DNA from: a virus
Virus record (IMG/VR): IMGVR_UViG_3300045988_009087
Span: 1 to 5,121 of that record
Reading direction: 5' to 3' (one strand)
DNA length: 5,121 bases
Made by a program: the position numbers and the translations under genes. The notes under the pieces are model-generated. The model was not told the DNA's origin. It searched no databases and saw nothing but the letters and a program-made list of their open reading frames with translations. This document shows, piece after piece, positions 1-5,121 of the stretch; the first letter of the stretch is position 1, and the number at the start of each line of letters is the position of its first letter.

Positions 1-55
1 GCAGTTCTTTTCATCGAAATCAGTAGAGATTAATCCAGCCTGTAACTTATCCAGA
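1..55. repeat. Terminal direct repeat, copy 1. It is identical to 5067-5121 and marks a circular genome written out linearly.
   Basis: I compared 1-55 (gcagttcttttcatcgaaatcagtagagattaatccagcctgtaacttatccaga) base by base with 5067-5121 and all 55 positions match. A 55-bp end overlap is the usual result of a k=55 de Bruijn assembly closing a circle. Confidence 0.95.
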
Positions 56-252
56 ATCACAGCCATATCACATCCGGGAGCAAAACTGTTAATATATGCG
101 GATATATCAATATCACGAATCTTAGTAAGACATTTACGACCATCTTTACCTACGGATAACTTATACTCTTCACGGGTGGCTGTTCCGGGGTTACTTTCCA
201 CCGGAACAGGATTTTCATATACATCATACATTGTCAACCACTTTTTCGACAT
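1..252 (-). CDS. Internal scaffolding protein VP3, N-terminal 84 codons. The gene wraps the circular junction as complement(join(4800..5066,1..252)), 172 aa in total.
   Basis: I translated the minus strand by hand. The frame of ORF 4800..5066 stays open through 5067-5121 (=1-55) and on to an in-frame TGA at 265-267. The first ATG is at 252-250, preceded by GAGGTGAAGAGT-ATG (an SD with 6-nt spacing). A second ATG lies at 231-229. The N-terminal sequence is MSKKWLTMYDVYENPVPVESNPGTATREEYKLSVGKDGRKCLTKIRDIDISAYINSFAPGCDMAVILDKLQAGLISTDFDEKNC... The later segment ...FRESFSEFPSEVQELFNYDSNLFIQSF resembles the conserved core of gokushovirus/Chlamydia-phage VP3 scaffold proteins, as I recall it. Confidence 0.75.
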   Translation of the reverse strand, partial: MSKKWLTMYDVYENPVPVESNPGTATREEYKLSVGKDGRKCLTKIRDIDISAYINSFAPGCDMAVILDKLQAGLISTDFDEKNC

Positions 253-520
253 ACTCTTCACCTCTCAGAATTTCTGGTACAGGAATAGCAACTTCATTAG
301 CTTCCATCATAACTTTCTCAGCATCCAAAAACATAAGACCATCAAAACGACCAACCAAACGGAACGAATATTCTTTAGGTTCACCAACAGCGATTTGAGC
401 CACAAGGTTCTTGAATACACGTTCTGCCCATTCAACACCAGGCAGAACATAATACTGCATAGCGTTATTACTTACTTCATCATAGAAACAATACACTACA
501 TCAACAATTCCATTTCTCAT
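224..520 (-). CDS. Conserved microvirus non-structural protein, VP5-like (98 aa)
   Basis: The ATG is at 520-518, preceded by AGAGGAGGTATAAGATT-ATG (a GGAGG SD). Its start overlaps the stop of the upstream small basic ORF as ATGA, and its 3' end overlaps the VP3 start by 29 nt. It sits between rep and VP3, where gokushoviruses carry VP5. The pattern VYCFYDEV...A.RVF...EYSFRLVGRFD resembles VP5-type proteins from memory only. Confidence 0.6.
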   Translation of the reverse strand: MRNGIVDVVYCFYDEVSNNAMQYYVLPGVEWAERVFKNLVAQIAVGEPKEYSFRLVGRFDGLMFLDAEKVMMEANEVAIPVPEILRGEEYVEKVVDNV

Positions 521-636
521 AATCTTATACCTCCTCTGTATAACAACGGGCGCACATTCATTTTTTTTGTGCGATCAGCAGTTTTACGAAAAACCTGCCT
601 ATCTTTAGTTTTTGACTTCATAGGTTTACCAGCCAT
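517..636 (-). CDS. Small, highly basic putative DNA-binding/packaging protein (39 aa), analogous to phiX174 J or gokushovirus ORF8. It is below the size cut-off of the supplied ORF track.
   Basis: Hand translation of the minus strand gives MAGKPMKSKTKDRQVFRKTADRTKKMNVRPLLYRGGIRL*. It has 13 K/R against 2 D/E. The ATG at 636-634 follows GAAAGGATGTGTTTTT-ATG (an AAAGGA SD). Its TGA stop at 519-517 overlaps the next gene's ATG as ATGA, which suggests translational coupling. It lies directly downstream of the predicted promoter. Confidence 0.7.
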   Translation of the reverse strand: MAGKPMKSKTKDRQVFRKTADRTKKMNVRPLLYRGGIRL

Positions 637-672
637 AAAAACACATCCTTTCTTTATATTATTTATAAACAT

Positions 673-700
673 ATTATACCATATTAAATTATATTATCAA
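673..700 (-). promoter_or_regulatory. Sigma70/SigA-type promoter with an extended -10, reading on the minus strand into the J-like, VP5-like, VP3 and VP1 genes
   Basis: The minus strand reads TTGATA (700-695), then a 16-nt spacer ending in TGG, then TATAAT (678-673). This gives a 5/6 match at -35, a perfect -10 and a TGn extended -10. It lies in the non-coding gap 8 nt after the rep stop codon and about 37 nt before the next gene's SD. Confidence 0.55.
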
Positions 701-707
701 TAAAAAT

Positions 708-1730
708 TTAAATTTCTGGACGTAAAAGCATACGACTCTTAAATTGTTTTGATTGCTCATCAATCGCCAATTGTTCGAAATAATCTAATTCAGTACTATA
801 TTCTTTAATTTTCTGTAACATCTTAGCAGTCTCAACACGATTTTCAGACATTTTTTCAAATTCTTTCGGATAATCAAGTTCAAAGAACGGGTCAAAGTAT
901 CTAGGAACAGGAGCAGTCAAACCATCAGGCAATTGCACATAACCTGAATCTAACATATCTTTAGCATGAGTATCATAATACTCTTTGCCGATACCGGGCT
1001 TTCTTGACATGCGAGAGAACTCAGGAATAATCCCTAGATCCTCATACACATTATAATCTGTACCTTTATGCTTTTTTAATATATAACGAGCAACATAAGC
1101 ACATGATTTCCAGCATACATCAGCTACAACATTATAACCGTATTTCCAAATTTTGTTAAGAGTAAGCGAATACCAATATTTATTGCCAGAAAAACTATTT
1201 TTTAAAAAAACCAAATCATTTTCAGGCGGTATCCAATCGAATAAAATCAAATGATAGTGTGGACGATGAGTTTGAGAACCATATTCACCAGCAAGGAAAA
1301 AACGAATTTTAATATCTGTCCTTGTAGACTGTTCTTTCCTCAAGCGTTTCATAAAAAGCTGAACATCATCAGGATCTAAAGTATAAGCAAGTTTAGAACC
1401 TCGCTTAATATGATCATCGTCATAAGTCAATGTAACAAAAAATGCAGATTCATGGCATTGCAACTCAAGCATCAAGCGAGTAGCCCAACGACGAGAATAA
1501 TCTAATCTACAACCAATACACTGACCACAGGGAATAAGAAATGTATCAAGTTTACGCCAAGTACCAATATCAAATAAACGATCTGATGTGGTAAACACAT
1601 CTGGTTTAGCACGATTTTGATACACGAATTTATTATCAGTAGTAGCAGACGGAAAAACTTTAACTTTACGTTTACCAGAATCTGTCAAAACATTAGTATA
1701 AGCACCACGCAAAGGATGATAACAAGCCAT
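708..1730 (-). CDS. Replication initiation protein VP4 (rolling-circle HUH endonuclease, phiX174 gene A-like), 340 aa
   Basis: The ATG at 1730 is preceded by AAAGGAGAAAAAT-ATG (a strong SD). Rolling-circle Rep motifs are visible: FFVTLTYDD (motif 1), HRPHYHLILF (the HUH motif, here HYH) and YVARYILKK (a two-tyrosine catalytic motif, as in phiX174 A YVAKY). The microvirus-typical cysteine cluster PCGQCIGCRLDYSRRWA is also present. Confidence 0.93.
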   Translation of the reverse strand: MACYHPLRGAYTNVLTDSGKRKVKVFPSATTDNKFVYQNRAKPDVFTTSDRLFDIGTWRKLDTFLIPCGQCIGCRLDYSRRWATRLMLELQCHESAFFVTLTYDDDHIKRGSKLAYTLDPDDVQLFMKRLRKEQSTRTDIKIRFFLAGEYGSQTHRPHYHLILFDWIPPENDLVFLKNSFSGNKYWYSLTLNKIWKYGYNVVADVCWKSCAYVARYILKKHKGTDYNVYEDLGIIPEFSRMSRKPGIGKEYYDTHAKDMLDSGYVQLPDGLTAPVPRYFDPFFELDYPKEFEKMSENRVETAKMLQKIKEYSTELDYFEQLAIDEQSKQFKSRMLLRPEI

Positions 1731-1750
1731 ATTTTTCTCCTTTCTGATTA

Positions 1751-1996
1751 CTAATGATCTTCATTTTCATTGAACATAGATTTTAATTCTTCAATTCTAT
1801 TAATATTATCAATATTTTCTACAGGAACATAATCAATAATAATACAGAAAAGTCGAAAAACATAATATGGCATACAATTCTTACTATCCCAGTTACGAAC
1901 AGTACCAATAGGAATACCAAATGCACGAGCAAATTCTGACTGACTCATACCAAGCGCACTTCTAATTCCATGAGAAGATATTTTTATTTTTGACAT
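1751..1996 (-). CDS. XRE/Cro-C1-type helix-turn-helix DNA-binding protein (81 aa). This is an accessory gene outside the canonical gokushovirus core.
   Basis: I prefer the start at ATG 1996-1994, which follows GAAAGGAGTTTTAT-ATG (a strong SD), over the track's upstream ATG at 2023, which has no SD. The sequence is MSKIKISSHGIRSALGMSQSEFARAFGIPIGTVRNWDSKNCMPYYVFRLFCIIIDYVP... It fits the pattern IR..LG(M/L)SQ.EFA..(F/L)G(I/V)...TV..W(E/D).....P......L...I...P, typical of short HTH_3-like regulators of the YiaG / MqsA C-terminal / HigA antitoxin style. The tail is acidic (NENEDH). Confidence 0.8.
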   Translation of the reverse strand: MSKIKISSHGIRSALGMSQSEFARAFGIPIGTVRNWDSKNCMPYYVFRLFCIIIDYVPVENIDNINRIEELKSMFNENEDH

Positions 1997-2020
1997 ATAA
2001 AACTCCTTTCTAAAGCAAAT

Positions 2021-2048
2021 CATCCGACAAGCTAACGCTCATCGGATG
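2021..2048. repeat. Inverted repeat / stem-loop 1 in the VP2-HTH non-coding region
   Basis: catccga (2021-2027) pairs perfectly with tcggatg (2042-2048). The 14-nt loop can form a further 3-bp stem (agc/gct) around a 4-nt loop. On the minus strand it is followed by ATTTGCTTT and then the SD of the HTH gene. Confidence 0.7.
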
Positions 2049-2060
2049 GCTATAGTTTGA

Positions 2061-2079
2061 GTTATCCAGAGCGGATAAC
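2061..2079. repeat. Perfect 7-5-7 palindrome / stem-loop 2
   Basis: gttatcc (2061-2067), agagc (2068-2072), ggataac (2073-2079). The arms are exact reverse complements. Confidence 0.75.
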
Positions 2080-2097
2080 TGCTTTTGGTGTCACTCC

Positions 2098-2126
2098 GAC
2101 CAGTTACATCAAGTAAGTAACTGGTC
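2098..2126. repeat. Stem-loop 3, with a perfect 10-bp stem and a 9-nt loop. This is the strongest hairpin in the genome.
   Basis: gaccagttac (2098-2107) pairs perfectly with gtaactggtc (2117-2126). The loop is atcaagtaa on the plus strand and TTACTTGAT on the viral-sense minus strand. It begins 11 nt after the VP2 stop codon. Confidence 0.8.
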
Positions 2127-2136
2127 TGCGTATCGG

Positions 2137-2808
2137 CTACCCGAAAATTTTGCCAAGCAATCCAGCAGCTGAACCAGCAAGACTACCAAGAAGACTCATA
2201 TTCTGACCACGCTTTGTAGTCTTAGAATTGACATTGGTAGCATAACGAGAAGCGCCAGAACTCTTATTACTAGAATACTTAGTACTAGCATAACCCATCT
2301 GAGAAGCATAACGAGATGCGGCAGAACTCATATTAGCCGCATAACGAGAAGCGTTGGCAGAATTAAGACTAGCGAAGCGAGAAGCCTCAGCTTGAATATT
2401 AGCAGCTTGTAAAGCTGTAGCTTGATTAATACGAGCAGCTTCCAAAGTAGCATCACGTTGCATCTGAGCAATAGCTTGTTGATTAGCATTATTCTGCTGA
2501 TTAACAATAATACTTGTCAATGCAGGAACAACGGAATTATCAGTTTCACCTTTGGCACCGGATGCAGTCGCACCGGATCCAGTTTGAGCACCAGAACCGC
2601 CAGCACTAAGAACAGGATTAAGCCCTGCTTTTTGAAGATCGAGAACCTCTCTTTGATGAGCGGTTGCAGACTGTTGAGCTTGCCAGTCTCTGTTTTTTTG
2701 TGCTTCGGAAGCATTGAAACGCATTTCTTCACGAGCAAATTCTTGAGACTTAGCAGTATTTTGCGAAGCAATGTTGGAAAGCTGTGCAGTAAGTTGATCA
2801 GTATTCAT
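2137..2808 (-). CDS. Minor capsid / DNA pilot protein VP2 (223 aa)
   Basis: I prefer ATG 2808-2806, which follows GAAAGGCGATACT-ATG (an SD), over the track's GTG at 2859. The N-terminal region EEMRFNASEAQKNRDWQAQQSATAHQREVLDLQKAGLNPVL matches the hallmark gokushovirus VP2 motif (AHQRE..DL..AGLNP.L). A Gly/Ser/Ala linker follows, then a Q/A-rich helical region, then 11-residue repeats, then a C-terminal glycine-zipper-like hydrophobic tail LLGSLAGSAAGLLGKIFG. Confidence 0.88.
   Translation of the reverse strand: MNTDQLTAQLSNIASQNTAKSQEFAREEMRFNASEAQKNRDWQAQQSATAHQREVLDLQKAGLNPVLSAGGSGAQTGSGATASGAKGETDNSVVPALTSIIVNQQNNANQQAIAQMQRDATLEAARINQATALQAANIQAEASRFASLNSANASRYAANMSSAASRYASQMGYASTKYSSNKSSGASRYATNVNSKTTKRGQNMSLLGSLAGSAAGLLGKIFG
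2218..2382 (-). repeat. Five tandem 11-codon (33-nt) repeats inside VP2
   Basis: The protein register is SRFASLNSANA / SRYAANMSSAA / SRYASQMGYAS / TKYSSNKSSGA / SRYATNVNSKT. At the DNA level the core gcataacgaga(a/t)gcg recurs at about 2239, 2305 and 2339, with spacings of 66 and 33-34 nt. Confidence 0.8.
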
Positions 2809-2858
2809 AGTATCGCCTTTCGTGGGGAAGTAGTACAAGCCATTCAGCCTGTAAACCA

Positions 2859-2880
2859 CCTTTTTTTATACAAAAAAAGG
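2859..2880. repeat. A/T-rich hairpin in the VP1-VP2 intergenic region
   Basis: ccttttttt (2859-2867), atac, aaaaaaagg (2872-2880). This is a perfect 9-bp stem made of 2 GC and 7 AT pairs, about 50 nt upstream of the VP2 start on the minus strand. Confidence 0.6.
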
Positions 2881-2920
2881 AAGTTGACAGACTGCCTGTC
2901 TCGTACTAAATAGTAATCAA

Positions 2921-2942
2921 GGACAGATGTGATCATCTGTCC
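2921..2942 (-). terminator. Candidate intrinsic (probably leaky) terminator downstream of VP1
   Basis: A perfect 9-bp stem, ggacagatg (2921-2929) with catctgtcc (2934-2942), encloses a 4-nt loop. On the minus strand it is followed by TTGATTACTATTT (T-rich but interrupted). It begins 48 nt after the VP1 stop codon. Confidence 0.4.
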
Positions 2943-2990
2943 CTTCGTGACATATAATTAAGCATGAACATTACACAATGTTGTACGATA

Positions 2991-4703
2991 TTACAGAGTG
3001 TGCAAGCCTGGAATAGAATGTACTGGCATAACTCTGGTGGTCAAATTCTTGACATAGAAATCACCAAAAATCTGGTCAGCCAACTTCGAAGTAACAGCCA
3101 GTGTCCTATCCACATTCGTCTTATCTTCCTGAATCCATGCACTACTTAACGTAGGCTTCTTAGCATAATAATCTGCAAAATGCCAAGATTGTAAACTATT
3201 AGTAATACCAGATCGCATCTCACCAGTTACAATAGAAGTCTTATATCTGTAATCAGCCCAGGCTTCCTGATAGCCGAAAACATTATCAAGACTGCCAAAA
3301 CCGTCATTCTCATAATAGATTTCACGAGAATATATCGGCTGTTCACCAATGTTAGCCAAAATCGGAAAATAGTAGTCAAGACGATTCTTACGAGACCACA
3401 TACGCTGTAAGCCTTGCTGATATGTATGATTATATCTTGCACACATCACACCAATCACATAACCGTGTTCCGTAAAAGACTTCGTGAAACTATTATCTGT
3501 ATTAGAAGTCAGAGACATAGCCGCGGTAGTACCAAGCGGAGTCTCACCGGACTCTGACTGCTGAACAATCTGATGAACATTGATTCTTGTACGATTAGCA
3601 GACAATAACTCAGGTCTCTGTAATCTTCCATCGGGAGATATAACACCAAAATGACCTCGAAGCAACTCTACATAACGAGATCCAGAGCGAGCATCCGTTT
3701 CAAGCATCTGCTGAGTAGCGAAAGCTAAGCGAAGACTATTCACCGTCAATGGATCAGAAGCAGACGGATCAGCATAAAGATTATTAAAATAAATTCCAGA
3801 ATCATCTGCAATCTGACTATCAAGCGGAAATTCAGTAGTACCAAAATTAAGAGAAGTATAACTTTCAGGACGAGAAGGCAACCGAGGAACATTAGAAGCA
3901 GCATACATAGAACGATATTTTCCTTCAGTAATAGGATAACCGTTCACATTAACAAGAGACACAGCGGGATGCTTACCAGTCATACTAACTTTATCACGAG
4001 TAACCACAGGAATATCGCCAAAAATACTTGAAATCGTCACATCATCACCCTTTTGAGGTTGAGGAAGCGCGCTGGTAAAATAATCATGCAACTTATTAAC
4101 TTTAAGTAACTTACCACCTTTGGCAGAATTATTCTTATCGAACTCTACATTACCATCATCAATATCAACCAATACCTCATCCTGAAGATTCTCATCACGG
4201 AACCACTCATTCCAGATCAAGTTATATGCATTGATCGGAAGCCTACTTATAGACAAAACACCATCGGGATTAATTGGAACACCGAAATAGTCAAGCAGAG
4301 ATTTCTGCAAAACGGTCTTATCAGACTTAGAGAACGTCAACTGTGGAACCTGATATTCTACATCAGAAGTCCACGCAGAAGTGGATTCTCCCATGAATTC
4401 TTTCCAATGCGTCCAGCAAAGTCTGGACGGAACAAAGAAGTAATACATATCAAGAAAAAGATCATCCATAGGAGGTGTGATAAGCGTTTGTAATCTAGTT
4501 ACGAAAGAAGTCTCTACATCGAACGTATCACCGGGTAGAACCTCATCAAGATAAAACGGCACTAAGTCACCAACATTAAACGAAGTCTTGATCGAAGACG
4601 ATCTATCAAACCGGGAACGAGGTCTTTCCAGATCGCTCTTATACGTTGAAAAATAACTGTTAGCATCAATCAGATTTTTTGAAAATGCCAACTTAATCAC
4701 CAT
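2991..4703 (-). CDS. Major capsid protein VP1 (phiX174 F-like, Microviridae jelly-roll capsid), 570 aa from ATG 4703
   Basis: This is the longest ORF. The N-terminal block RPRSRFDRSSSIKTSFNVGDLVPFYLDEVLPGDTFDVETSFVTRL...YYFFVPSRLCW is the signature opening of gokushovirus VP1 / phage F capsid proteins. The start is uncertain. The track's start at 4724 is a TTG with no SD. ATG 4703 directly abuts the SD-like AGAAAGG (zero spacing). In-frame GTG 4700 and TTG 4691 are alternatives. Confidence 0.93.
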   Translation of the reverse strand: MVIKLAFSKNLIDANSYFSTYKSDLERPRSRFDRSSSIKTSFNVGDLVPFYLDEVLPGDTFDVETSFVTRLQTLITPPMDDLFLDMYYFFVPSRLCWTHWKEFMGESTSAWTSDVEYQVPQLTFSKSDKTVLQKSLLDYFGVPINPDGVLSISRLPINAYNLIWNEWFRDENLQDEVLVDIDDGNVEFDKNNSAKGGKLLKVNKLHDYFTSALPQPQKGDDVTISSIFGDIPVVTRDKVSMTGKHPAVSLVNVNGYPITEGKYRSMYAASNVPRLPSRPESYTSLNFGTTEFPLDSQIADDSGIYFNNLYADPSASDPLTVNSLRLAFATQQMLETDARSGSRYVELLRGHFGVISPDGRLQRPELLSANRTRINVHQIVQQSESGETPLGTTAAMSLTSNTDNSFTKSFTEHGYVIGVMCARYNHTYQQGLQRMWSRKNRLDYYFPILANIGEQPIYSREIYYENDGFGSLDNVFGYQEAWADYRYKTSIVTGEMRSGITNSLQSWHFADYYAKKPTLSSAWIQEDKTNVDRTLAVTSKLADQIFGDFYVKNLTTRVMPVHSIPGLHTL

Positions 4704-4779
4704 CCTTTCTGTAATCTGATGCAATCAACACTAAACTATAAATATTAAGTCCAAGATCCATAAGGATCAGGAAAAACAT
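4693..4779 (-). CDS. Hypothetical 28-aa hydrophobic peptide ORF in the VP3-VP1 spacer (weak call)
   Basis: Hand translation gives MFFLILMDLGLNIYSLVLIASDYRKDGD*. The ATG is at 4779-4777 and the TAA at 4695-4693. It overlaps the VP1 ATG by 11 nt. The only SD-like element (GGAAGG, 4798-4793) is 13 nt from the ATG, which is long. It could be a chance ORF in T-rich spacer. Confidence 0.2.
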   Translation of the reverse strand: MFFLILMDLGLNIYSLVLIASDYRKDGD

Positions 4780-4799
4780 AGCAAAAAGTAAACCTTCCA

Positions 4800-5121
4800 C
4801 TATTCATCACCAACTTTCTTACCAGAGCCAGAATCCGGCTTAGGATCCGGCTTAGGATCCGGCTTAGGATCCGGCTTAGGATCCGGCTTACGAAGAGAAT
4901 CAAGAGCAGAATCGAGCGAACCATCGAGAAAACTCTGAATAAACAGATTAGAATCATAGTTAAACAACTCCTGAACCTCAGACGGAAACTCAGAGAAACT
5001 CTCACGGAACTGCCTTGTCTTCTGCATTGCATCCACAACATCTTTCGGCATCATAGACAGATCCACGCAGTTCTTTTCATCGAAATCAGTAGAGATTAAT
5101 CCAGCCTGTAACTTATCCAGA
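4800..5121 (-). CDS. Internal scaffolding protein VP3, C-terminal part. The true unit is 4800-5066. The frame stays open through 5067-5121, which duplicates 1-55.
   Basis: The TAG stop is at 4802-4800. The track's 'M' at 5066 is a GTG inside a longer open frame, not the real start. The sequence is ...CVDLSMMPKDVVDAMQKTRQFRESFSEFPSEVQELFNYDSNLFIQSFLDGSLDSALDSLRKPDPKPDPKPDPKPDPKPDSGSGKKVGDE*. Confidence 0.8.
   Translation of the reverse strand, partial: LDKLQAGLISTDFDEKNCVDLSMMPKDVVDAMQKTRQFRESFSEFPSEVQELFNYDSNLFIQSFLDGSLDSALDSLRKPDPKPDPKPDPKPDPKPDSGSGKKVGDE
4833..4890 (-). repeat. Perfect 12-bp tandem repeat (about 4.8 copies) encoding the (KPDP)n tail of VP3
   Basis: The unit atccggcttagg occurs at 4833-4844, 4845-4856, 4857-4868 and 4869-4880, plus 10 of 12 nt at 4881-4890, with no mismatch. 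On the coding strand it reads AAG CCG GAT CCT. The repeat creates four GGATCC sites at 4843, 4855, 4867 and 4879. Confidence 0.95.
5067..5121. repeat. Terminal direct repeat, copy 2 (identical to 1-55)
   Basis: See copy 1. The match is exact over 55 nt. Confidence 0.95.

Follow-up and report, generated by a model that had tools for sequence, protein, structure and literature searches.

A small XRE-type helix-turn-helix gene between VP2 and Rep in a gokushovirus-like microvirus: a tentative regulator of the replication module

Background

No kind of accessory gene is commoner in phages than regulators of the XRE type, which carry a helix-turn-helix (HTH) DNA-binding domain. Microviruses are considered lytic, and we know of no dedicated transcription factor in the characterised members (phiX174 and the phages of Chlamydia, Bdellovibrio and Spiroplasma), which to our knowledge work with constitutive promoters and terminators. 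Here we analyse an 81-residue XRE-type HTH protein that is encoded between the pilot protein VP2 and the rolling-circle initiator Rep in a stretch of 5,121 nucleotides (nt), the window, which comprises positions 1 to 5,121 of the IMG/VR record IMGVR_UViG_3300045988_009087. The window represents a single circular genome, 5,066 nt in length, whose ends overlap by 55 nt; it belongs to a gokushovirus-like microvirus of the gut, and all of its genes lie on the minus strand (Table 1). We propose, tentatively, that the protein regulates its own transcription together with that of Rep.

Among described systems, the best matches in both sequence and fold are the C-terminal HTH domains of the HigA2, MqsA, NadS and YiaG type (5j9i and 2ppx; TIGR03830, NF041265 and PRK10072). 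The phage protein shares with the HigA2/MqsA/NadS type the pattern LGMSQSEFA..FGIP.GT(V/L)RNW(D/E)....P and an XRE core of four to five helices. It differs from that type in that an N-terminal domain for toxin binding or zinc is missing and its gene has no toxin gene beside it; it carries the turn D[SA][RK]xCMPxY after helix 3, and is encoded in a single-stranded DNA (ssDNA) phage of 5 kb. Small autoregulators of phages and mobile elements, namely Cro, the P2 C protein and the controller (C) proteins of restriction-modification systems (C.BclI, C.Kpn2I), are of similar size (60-85 residues) and share the XRE fold, and none of them gives an individually significant sequence match. As with these regulators, the gene stands first in an operon ahead of a potentially toxic nuclease gene, and several members of the family have dyads at the promoter; unlike the C proteins, the window holds no C-box-like pair of operators, only a single dyad (palindrome A in Table 1) with no promoter scoring at least 9/12 beside it.

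An HTH gene beside an HUH Rep is also found in two small filamentous ssDNA phages, TLC-phi (TlcR) and CTX-phi (RstR), and TlcR is described as a transcriptional repressor of cri, which encodes the Rep of that phage (PMC6744903). Those phages are chronic or integrative, unlike microviruses in the usual view. In the window the HTH gene is co-directional with Rep, and the likeness holds at the XRE level only; two members of the present family, P0066 and P0128, give weak matches to the RstR family (E 5e-3 and 6.4e-3). XafT (VC1465) has an N-terminal XRE HTH that resembles the family, but the phage protein has no DUF3653, the domain in which XerD activation by XafT resides (PMC6744903), and the genome has no dif-like attP. 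Among gokushoviruses, Microvirus AZ-2020 (ON111452) has a small open reading frame (ORF) upstream of Rep that was named a 'putative transcription regulation protein' and proposed to bind DNA (PMC9584320); homology to that protein was rejected (hhalign probability 0.1%), and we treat it as a positional analogue only. The recognisable accessory functions in a large survey of microviral diversity were methyltransferases and lysis genes only, with no regulators (PMC9239249), and we found no description of the present HTH family in the literature that we searched on Microviridae regulators.

Results and discussion

A constrained gene with a predicted XRE fold

The 81-residue ORF is a real gene under constraint. 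Its stop codon lies 20 nt from the ATG of the co-oriented Rep gene, and protein searches returned 43 clusters of homologues at 62-96% identity, nearly all of 79-84 residues and all on contigs of at most 5.2 kb. The order VP2-HTH-Rep is kept in every complete microviral locus examined. A longer version of 90 residues, starting at the ATG at 2023, was rejected, as the homologues all begin MSK or MTS. In a Nei-Gojobori analysis, the ratio of nonsynonymous to synonymous substitution (dN/dS) over residues 1-58 is 0.22-0.37 for six out of the seven pairs compared, with few substitutions in the closest one; that of Rep and VP2 is 0.06-0.19. Over the tail (residues 59-81) the ratio is about 1, a value that comes from divergent pairs only, the closer ones having too few synonymous changes for an estimate. 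Close pairs show a lowered dS in the HTH gene, which was set aside: it concerns about 48 synonymous sites and has no echo in sliding-window identity.

A preliminary description of the window had reported an extra gene with a strong Shine-Dalgarno sequence between VP2 and rep, occupying about 5% of the genome and lacking a partner toxin gene. All of this stands. The reading frame and its AAGGAG motif were verified, a sister lineage (below) is without the gene, the gene takes up 4.9% of the 5,066 nt, and no toxin-like ORF occurs in the genome, whose other ORFs are canonical microviral genes, a 51-residue basic protein and a 35-residue peptide.

The protein is predicted to have the XRE HTH fold. 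As a single sequence it stays below the Pfam thresholds (HTH_28, E 1e-3; HTH_3, E 7e-3, with 16.8 bits against a gathering cut-off of 23). Within the family, HTH_3 matches at E<0.01 were obtained for 17 of the 28 members, the best at 3.4e-6, and the family profile matches PDB entry 2ppx at E 4e-5. An AlphaFold2 model built on a 60-sequence alignment has a predicted local distance difference test (pLDDT) score of 85.8, compared with 72 when a less diverse alignment was used. It contains five predicted helices (8-15, 19-26, 30-39, 44-56 and 59-80), of which 30-39 (IGTVRNWDSK) is the predicted recognition helix and 59-80 a variable amphipathic tail. The best solved structures found for it in the PDB by Foldseek are the DNA-binding domain at the C-terminus of HigA2, a Vibrio antitoxin, and then Atu1735, with P2 C, CylR2, SinR and C.BclI further down, and nearly all of the top matches are HTH DNA-binding proteins, mostly of the XRE type. 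The earlier assignment of the gene to the HTH proteins is thus borne out by the profile search, by the family matches to HTH_3 and by the model.

The same description had called the protein antitoxin-style, which is apt for the lineage of its fold, the nearest relatives being the DNA-binding domains of MqsA, NadS and HigA2, but not for the rest of an antitoxin: the protein is a DNA-binding domain only, with no neutralising segment and no toxin. Its NCBIfam matches are all below the curated cut-offs (NadS, 24.9 bits against 60; PRK10072, 23.9 against 110; MqsA, 18.5 against 61.8), and those to NadS and MqsA cover profile positions 37-70 of 94 and 73-115 of 127, respectively. PRK10072 we take to be YiaG, the NCBIfam table naming it only as an HTH-type transcriptional regulator. 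The layout of anti-CRISPR-associated (Aca) regulators, whose gene immediately follows acr in a shared operon, was not found, the upstream neighbour being VP2 or the intergenic region and the downstream one Rep or the origin; the fold match to Aca2 is weak (E 0.24). Libraries of defence systems returned only a weak, generic HTH match (mad1, E 5e-5).

Spread of the subfamily

An exhaustive profile search of 1.84 billion representatives gave 938 proteins at E<=1e-3. Short proteins, mostly of 58-110 residues, make up the best single-domain matches, although a few multi-repeat HTH proteins of several hundred residues score higher by way of multiple stretches. The motif shared by the family is (T/S)(S/T)HxIRxxLGx(S/T)QxxFAxxFxIPLxTV(R/Q/K)NWD(S/A)(R/K)xCMPxY. 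A second, word-indexed search with the family alignment returned 99 clusters, none of them on a contig longer than 9 kb. Where cellular proteins read NWEQGRRxP, the family has NWD[SA][RK]xCMPxY. We conclude that this is an uncharacterised, phage-restricted XRE-type subfamily with the signature TVRNWDxRxCMPxY; proteins of this general kind are very common, but the genomic setting here is unusual.

The subfamily is represented in gokushoviruses, in two inovirus-like genomes of small size (L076 and L086; L-numbers denote the related loci and contigs compared with the window) and in a temperate double-stranded DNA (dsDNA) phage fragment, L078, which also encodes a CI-type S24 repressor. L086 (5.4 kb) has Zot and Rep_OBD and carries its HTH member at 4855-5112, while L076 (6.3 kb) has Rep_trans and a Zot-like protein and carries its member at 5055-5267; one of these two HTH genes adjoins its Rep, and both are near the Zot-like gene. 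The signature was found in only seven IMG/VR contigs, six of them of about 5.1-5.3 kb. UniProt holds a viral protein 94% identical to the 81-residue protein; in GenBank phages, tblastn found a homologue only in Dulem virus 137, where it is annotated as hypothetical, and megablast found no close GenBank phage at the DNA level, only fragments. Only distant relatives are found among cellular proteins, nearly all of them from Alphaproteobacteria, with 26-62% identity (in most cases 35-45%) over about 26-64 residues. They are the C-terminal HTH domains of MqsA/NadS-type antitoxins, and in four of the five cellular pairs scanned a RelE or BrnT toxin gene overlaps the antitoxin gene or lies directly upstream of it.

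Inheritance with the origin and Rep

The sister lineage L091, whose Rep is 60% and VP1 74% identical to those of the window, has the order VP2, origin, hairpins, Rep, with no HTH gene. Because only the origin and hairpins lie between VP2 and Rep there, the HTH gene is an insertion relative to this lineage. Two arrangements are found among the loci that have it. The Dulem-type genomes (L001, L080, L083-85 and L094-96) run from the VP2 stop through a consensus promoter, the HTH gene and the origin to Rep, whereas in the clades of the window and of L021 the order is VP2, origin, HTH, Rep; on the evidence of these two orders, the HTH gene always abuts the origin, on one side or the other. Its distance upstream of Rep is 17-32 nt in the window, L081, L082, L022 and L021.

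Comparison of the window with L021 gives 66-80% identity from the origin through the HTH gene and Rep to the small basic gene, and mostly 92-98% over ORF5, VP3, VP1 and VP2, with lower values in a variable patch of VP1 and near the boundary of the module. From these blocks of low and high identity, the HTH gene recombines together with Rep and the origin, and the three are inherited as one recombination module. The VP1 patch, at about 1675-1875 in origin-anchored coordinates, is a 200-nt stretch of about 46% identity between the two genomes; it is a hypervariable capsid loop and may be the region that contacts the receptor.

The HTH cores of different microviral subgroups are 42-62% identical to one another and 42-50% identical to that of an inovirus member, while Rep and VP1 of the same subgroup genomes are 69-87% identical. 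Among the positions that vary between subgroups are the one at which helix 2 begins and the one just ahead of T32 (G, N, A, P or S); TVRNW is fixed. Both of these positions presumably align with base-contacting residues of the 434 repressor.

Elements of the VP2-HTH spacer

Folded as ssDNA, the 140-nt spacer between VP2 and the HTH gene forms three hairpins (dG, the folding free energy, -27.7 kcal/mol; z -6.4). It has no Rfam match, and an explanation as a structured RNA was rejected on that ground. The hairpin nearest VP2 is an origin-like stem-loop that is also present in L001, L015, L021, L022, L025, L080, L082-L084, L088 and L091. The core of its loop, ACTTGAT, is invariant in 12 genomes and is shared with the annotated viral-strand origin of phiX174, AACTTG^ATA; its stem shows five compensatory pairs, and 95.8% of cells pair, as against 19-37% with the partner slid. 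It is found, with flanks equally conserved, in the HTH-less sister L091, and we read it as an origin and not as an operator of the HTH protein. Rolling-circle replication of this gokushovirus lineage, for which we know of no defined replication origin, probably starts here.

Hairpin B, the one nearest the HTH gene, has the form of a terminator, and a clearer terminator occupies its position in L021. It probably ends the VP1-VP2 transcript, with the HTH-Rep unit just downstream. Palindrome A, between these two, occurs once in the genome and is found in all seven of the close-clade loci with exact arms and a variable spacer; its core lies 65-83 nt upstream of the HTH ATG. It is the sole remaining operator candidate among the three palindromes of the spacer, and a plausible one. 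The preliminary description had suggested autoregulation through the palindromes immediately upstream of the gene, and this idea is tenable only in part, for palindrome A; the stem-loop nearest VP2 covaries, resembles an origin and occurs in L091, and hairpin B resembles a terminator. The spacer of L022 and L024 is 221 nt long, owing to an 80-nt tandem duplication of the block formed by palindrome A and the terminator-like hairpin, and consequently contains two copies of GTTATCC-N5-GGATAAC.

A candidate autoregulator of the HTH-Rep unit

We hypothesize that the protein is a Cro- or controller-like XRE autoregulator of the unit formed by its own gene and Rep, and we assign this reading a probability of roughly 0.45; that the protein binds DNA, where its operator lies, in which direction it regulates and whether it dimerises are all matters of inference. 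In its favour count the family and fold of the protein, the purifying selection on its HTH core, the constant place of the gene between VP2 and Rep, the 17-32 nt that separate it from Rep and its recombination with Rep and the origin. The protein would dimerise, possibly by way of its C-terminal amphipathic helix, and the dimer would bind a dyad in the VP2-Rep intergenic region, the candidate being the core of palindrome A. Once bound, it would act back on transcription into HTH and Rep, and this feedback would decide how much Rep nuclease is made, or when, and so how fast the phage replicates. The HTH gene would then be an accessory part of a microvirus replication module made up of the origin, HTH, Rep and the small basic protein.

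In nine loci of other microviral subgroups, a near-consensus promoter, TTGAC[AT]-17-TA[TC]A[AC]T, is followed directly by the HTH gene (L093, whose upstream region is cut off, stands outside this comparison). Phage regulators that control their own synthesis are usually arranged in this way. Dyads that are statistically unusual adjoin or overlap the same region in the window (score reached by 2 of 300 shuffles), L096 (0 of 300), L086 (0 of 300) and L076 (12 of 300); those of L086 and L076 are long palindromes (AATAACATA|TATGTTATT) that overlap the -35 element of the upstream promoter. Variation between subgroups at positions around a fixed TVRNW also fits diverging operator specificities.

Several observations weigh against this hypothesis. 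No sigma-70-like promoter scoring at least 9/12 occurs between VP2 and the HTH gene in the subclade of the window, where only a weak TTATCC-18-TATAGC can be picked out by eye near the dyad. Palindrome A is explained equally well as one of three ssDNA hairpins, for example as part of a complementary-strand origin. No dyad is common to the subgroups, L001, L083, L084 and L021 having none above chance, and an operator universal to the HTH-bearing subgroups was looked for and not found. The C-terminal helix evolves with an omega of about 1. A likeness between the dyads of the window and of the inovirus-like genomes (ATAAC/GTTAT) was treated as chance, the half-sites being oppositely oriented.

Alternatively, the protein may be an immunity or copy-control repressor that maintains a non-integrated carrier (pseudolysogenic) state: by keeping Rep low it would let the replicative form persist, and it would exclude superinfection by relatives that share its specificity. 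We consider this possibility unlikely, although it is an extension of the autoregulator hypothesis and in no contradiction with it. It is encouraged by analogy: the enterogokushovirus EC6098 shows a carrier state and superinfection immunity without integration (PMC7062461). The family also occurs in the inovirus-like L076 and L086, whose infection would be chronic, and in the temperate L078, and the identity of its HTH cores is as far below that of Rep and VP1 as immunity-region diversification would have it. On the other hand, Dulem virus 137 is the only GenBank phage with a homologue by tblastn, and if EC6098 was among those searched, the gene is dispensable for a carrier state; nor is there an integrated copy or a dif site. 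Slightly more doubtful is a fuller version, which would amount to a regulatory layer not recognised before in gokushoviruses and in which a repressor of the replication module, with operators specific to each subgroup that act as immunity types, caps Rep, sustains a homo-immune, non-integrated carrier state and is swapped together with the origin and Rep. Were the protein instead an accessory that binds the origin and modulates nicking by Rep, complementary-strand priming or the switch to ssDNA packaging, with no part in transcription, the place of its gene right beside the origin stem-loop (on the downstream side in the clades of the window and of L021, on the upstream side in the Dulem-like clades) and the co-inheritance of that gene with origin and Rep would be accounted for; we think this improbable, given that the origin and its flanks are just as conserved in L091, so that the origin works without the protein, and that XRE proteins this small are, where known, regulators of transcription. 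We are equally sceptical of a regulator directed at the host, binding host promoters such as XRE or toxin-antitoxin operators or those of stress genes in place of phage DNA. The want of a consistent phage dyad in several subgroups, and a tail (59-81) as variable as host adaptation would make it, accord with such a role, which leaves the link to the replication module unexplained.

Two further readings fare worse. One, a proposal of the preliminary description, was that the protein is an anti-defence mimic that replaces a labile host antitoxin of the HigA, MqsA or NadS type and thereby blocks abortive infection. Its closest cellular homologues are indeed antitoxin C-terminal HTH domains encoded beside RelE or BrnT toxins, and the HigA2 C-terminal domain is its best fold match. 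However, the N-terminal extension of 35-75 residues that these antitoxins have is absent, the HTH beginning at about residue 8, and the cellular matches come from Alphaproteobacteria and not from gut bacteria. With a signature of its own and a family confined to contigs of at most 9 kb, none of them a long bacterial contig, the protein looks unlike a recently captured host antitoxin, and we regard the decoy as very improbable. The other is a role in lysogeny, either as a classical prophage repressor, a temperate function that the preliminary description had also proposed, or as an XafT-like Xer activation factor for dif integration, and to this we give almost no credence. In its favour are sub-threshold NCBIfam matches to VC1465/XafT (E 1.8e-3 with the protein of the window and 4e-7 with P0225) and the existence of a true prophage, in a Firmicute-like contig, among the distant relatives that have no HTH gene. 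The window match, however, spans positions 5-48 of the 111 in the profile, which is the HTH part of XafT only; DUF3653 gave no match in the window protein at E up to 1 and could not fit a tail of 23 residues. The window contains no dif-like site (no match to ATAATRTAYATTATGTHAANT with at most three mismatches), a search of 185,579 species-representative genomes (GTDB) revealed no close integrated copy, and all Rep clusters of at least 60% identity are on contigs of at most 6.6 kb. The 6.6-kb case is L088, a 6,570-nt ENA scaffold with a Rep 92% identical, which was considered as a prophage and rejected as chimeric. It has a choline-binding-repeat gene on one side, yqeY/rpsB on the other and a gap of 100 N; its phage part is the full circle plus a 52-nt overlap, with discordant junctions, one at the 35-residue ORF and the other 52 nt into Rep. 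Its Firmicute-type flanks are at most a weak hint of the host.

The distant relative just mentioned is a gokushovirus without the HTH gene (L089, at 7957-13042 of a 112.8-kb contig, and L090), with a Rep 40% identical to that of the window. Its sequence and a 5,086-nt segment of the Firmicute-like contig, which also carries CotJA/B and Cas1/Cas2, are 100% identical. The phage is a genuine prophage, opened within the spacer upstream of Rep, and palindromes of the type AATTGAACAAAAT-N4-ATTTTGTTCAATT border it. A border palindrome of this type is absent from the window.

Other features of the genome

The 35-residue ORF between VP3 and VP1, called as a gene in L022, L023, L081 and L082 as well, encodes a strongly hydrophobic peptide with a charged tail, a candidate membrane or lysis peptide. 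The promoter-like site between Rep and the gene for the basic protein is the best intergenic one on the coding strand; it is flanked by a 19-nt direct repeat (654-707), and no site resembling palindrome A occurs at it or within the repeat.

Table 1. Features of the 5,121-nt window, with positions counted from its first nucleotide
Feature	Position	Strand	Remarks
81-residue XRE-type HTH gene	1751-1996	-	MSKIKISSHGIR...; between VP2 and Rep; HTH core residues 1-58
Shine-Dalgarno AAGGAG of HTH gene	2003-2008	-	6 nt before ATG; motif also in relatives
Hairpin B, terminator-like	2021-2048	-	12 pairs, then ATTTGCTTTA
Palindrome A, candidate operator	2060-2080		AGTTATCC-N5-GGATAACT; core GTTATCC-N5-GGATAAC at 2061-2079
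Origin-like stem-loop	2096-2128	-	12-bp stem, 9-nt loop TTACTTGAT on coding (viral) strand
VP2 pilot protein	2137-2808	-	pilot-protein PHROGs
VP1-VP2 spacer, inverted repeat	2831-2908		long, imperfect; 37-nt arms, 78% complementary
VP1-VP2 spacer, hairpin	2919-2944		terminator-like
VP1 major capsid protein	2991-4724	-	Phage_F, E 3e-144
35-residue ORF	4693-4800	-	MEGLLFAMFFLILMDLGLNIYSLVLIASDYRKDGD
Tandem repeat near VP3 C-terminus	4830-4893		12-nt unit (AGGATCCGGCTT), five copies; encodes (KPDP)n
VP3 scaffold protein	spans genome ends	-	Chlamydia-phage type
ORF5-like protein	224-520	-	
51-residue basic protein	517-672	-	
Promoter-like site	673-700	-	TTGATA-16-TATAAT, upstream TG
Rep/VP4 rolling-circle initiator	708-1730	-	PF23343; phrog_942, E 1e-108; own AAGGAG at 1737-1742

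Conclusions

That the subfamily is common to microviruses and small inoviruses suggests a pool of regulators shared by small ssDNA phages of gut Firmicutes. If the hypothesis of an immunity-type repressor were true, such a protein could help to explain how microviruses persist in the gut over the long term without lysogeny. A conserved HTH regulator tied to the origin and Rep in a lineage of gut gokushoviruses would offer a first way into the study of how replication is regulated in this family, or of its carrier states and immunity.

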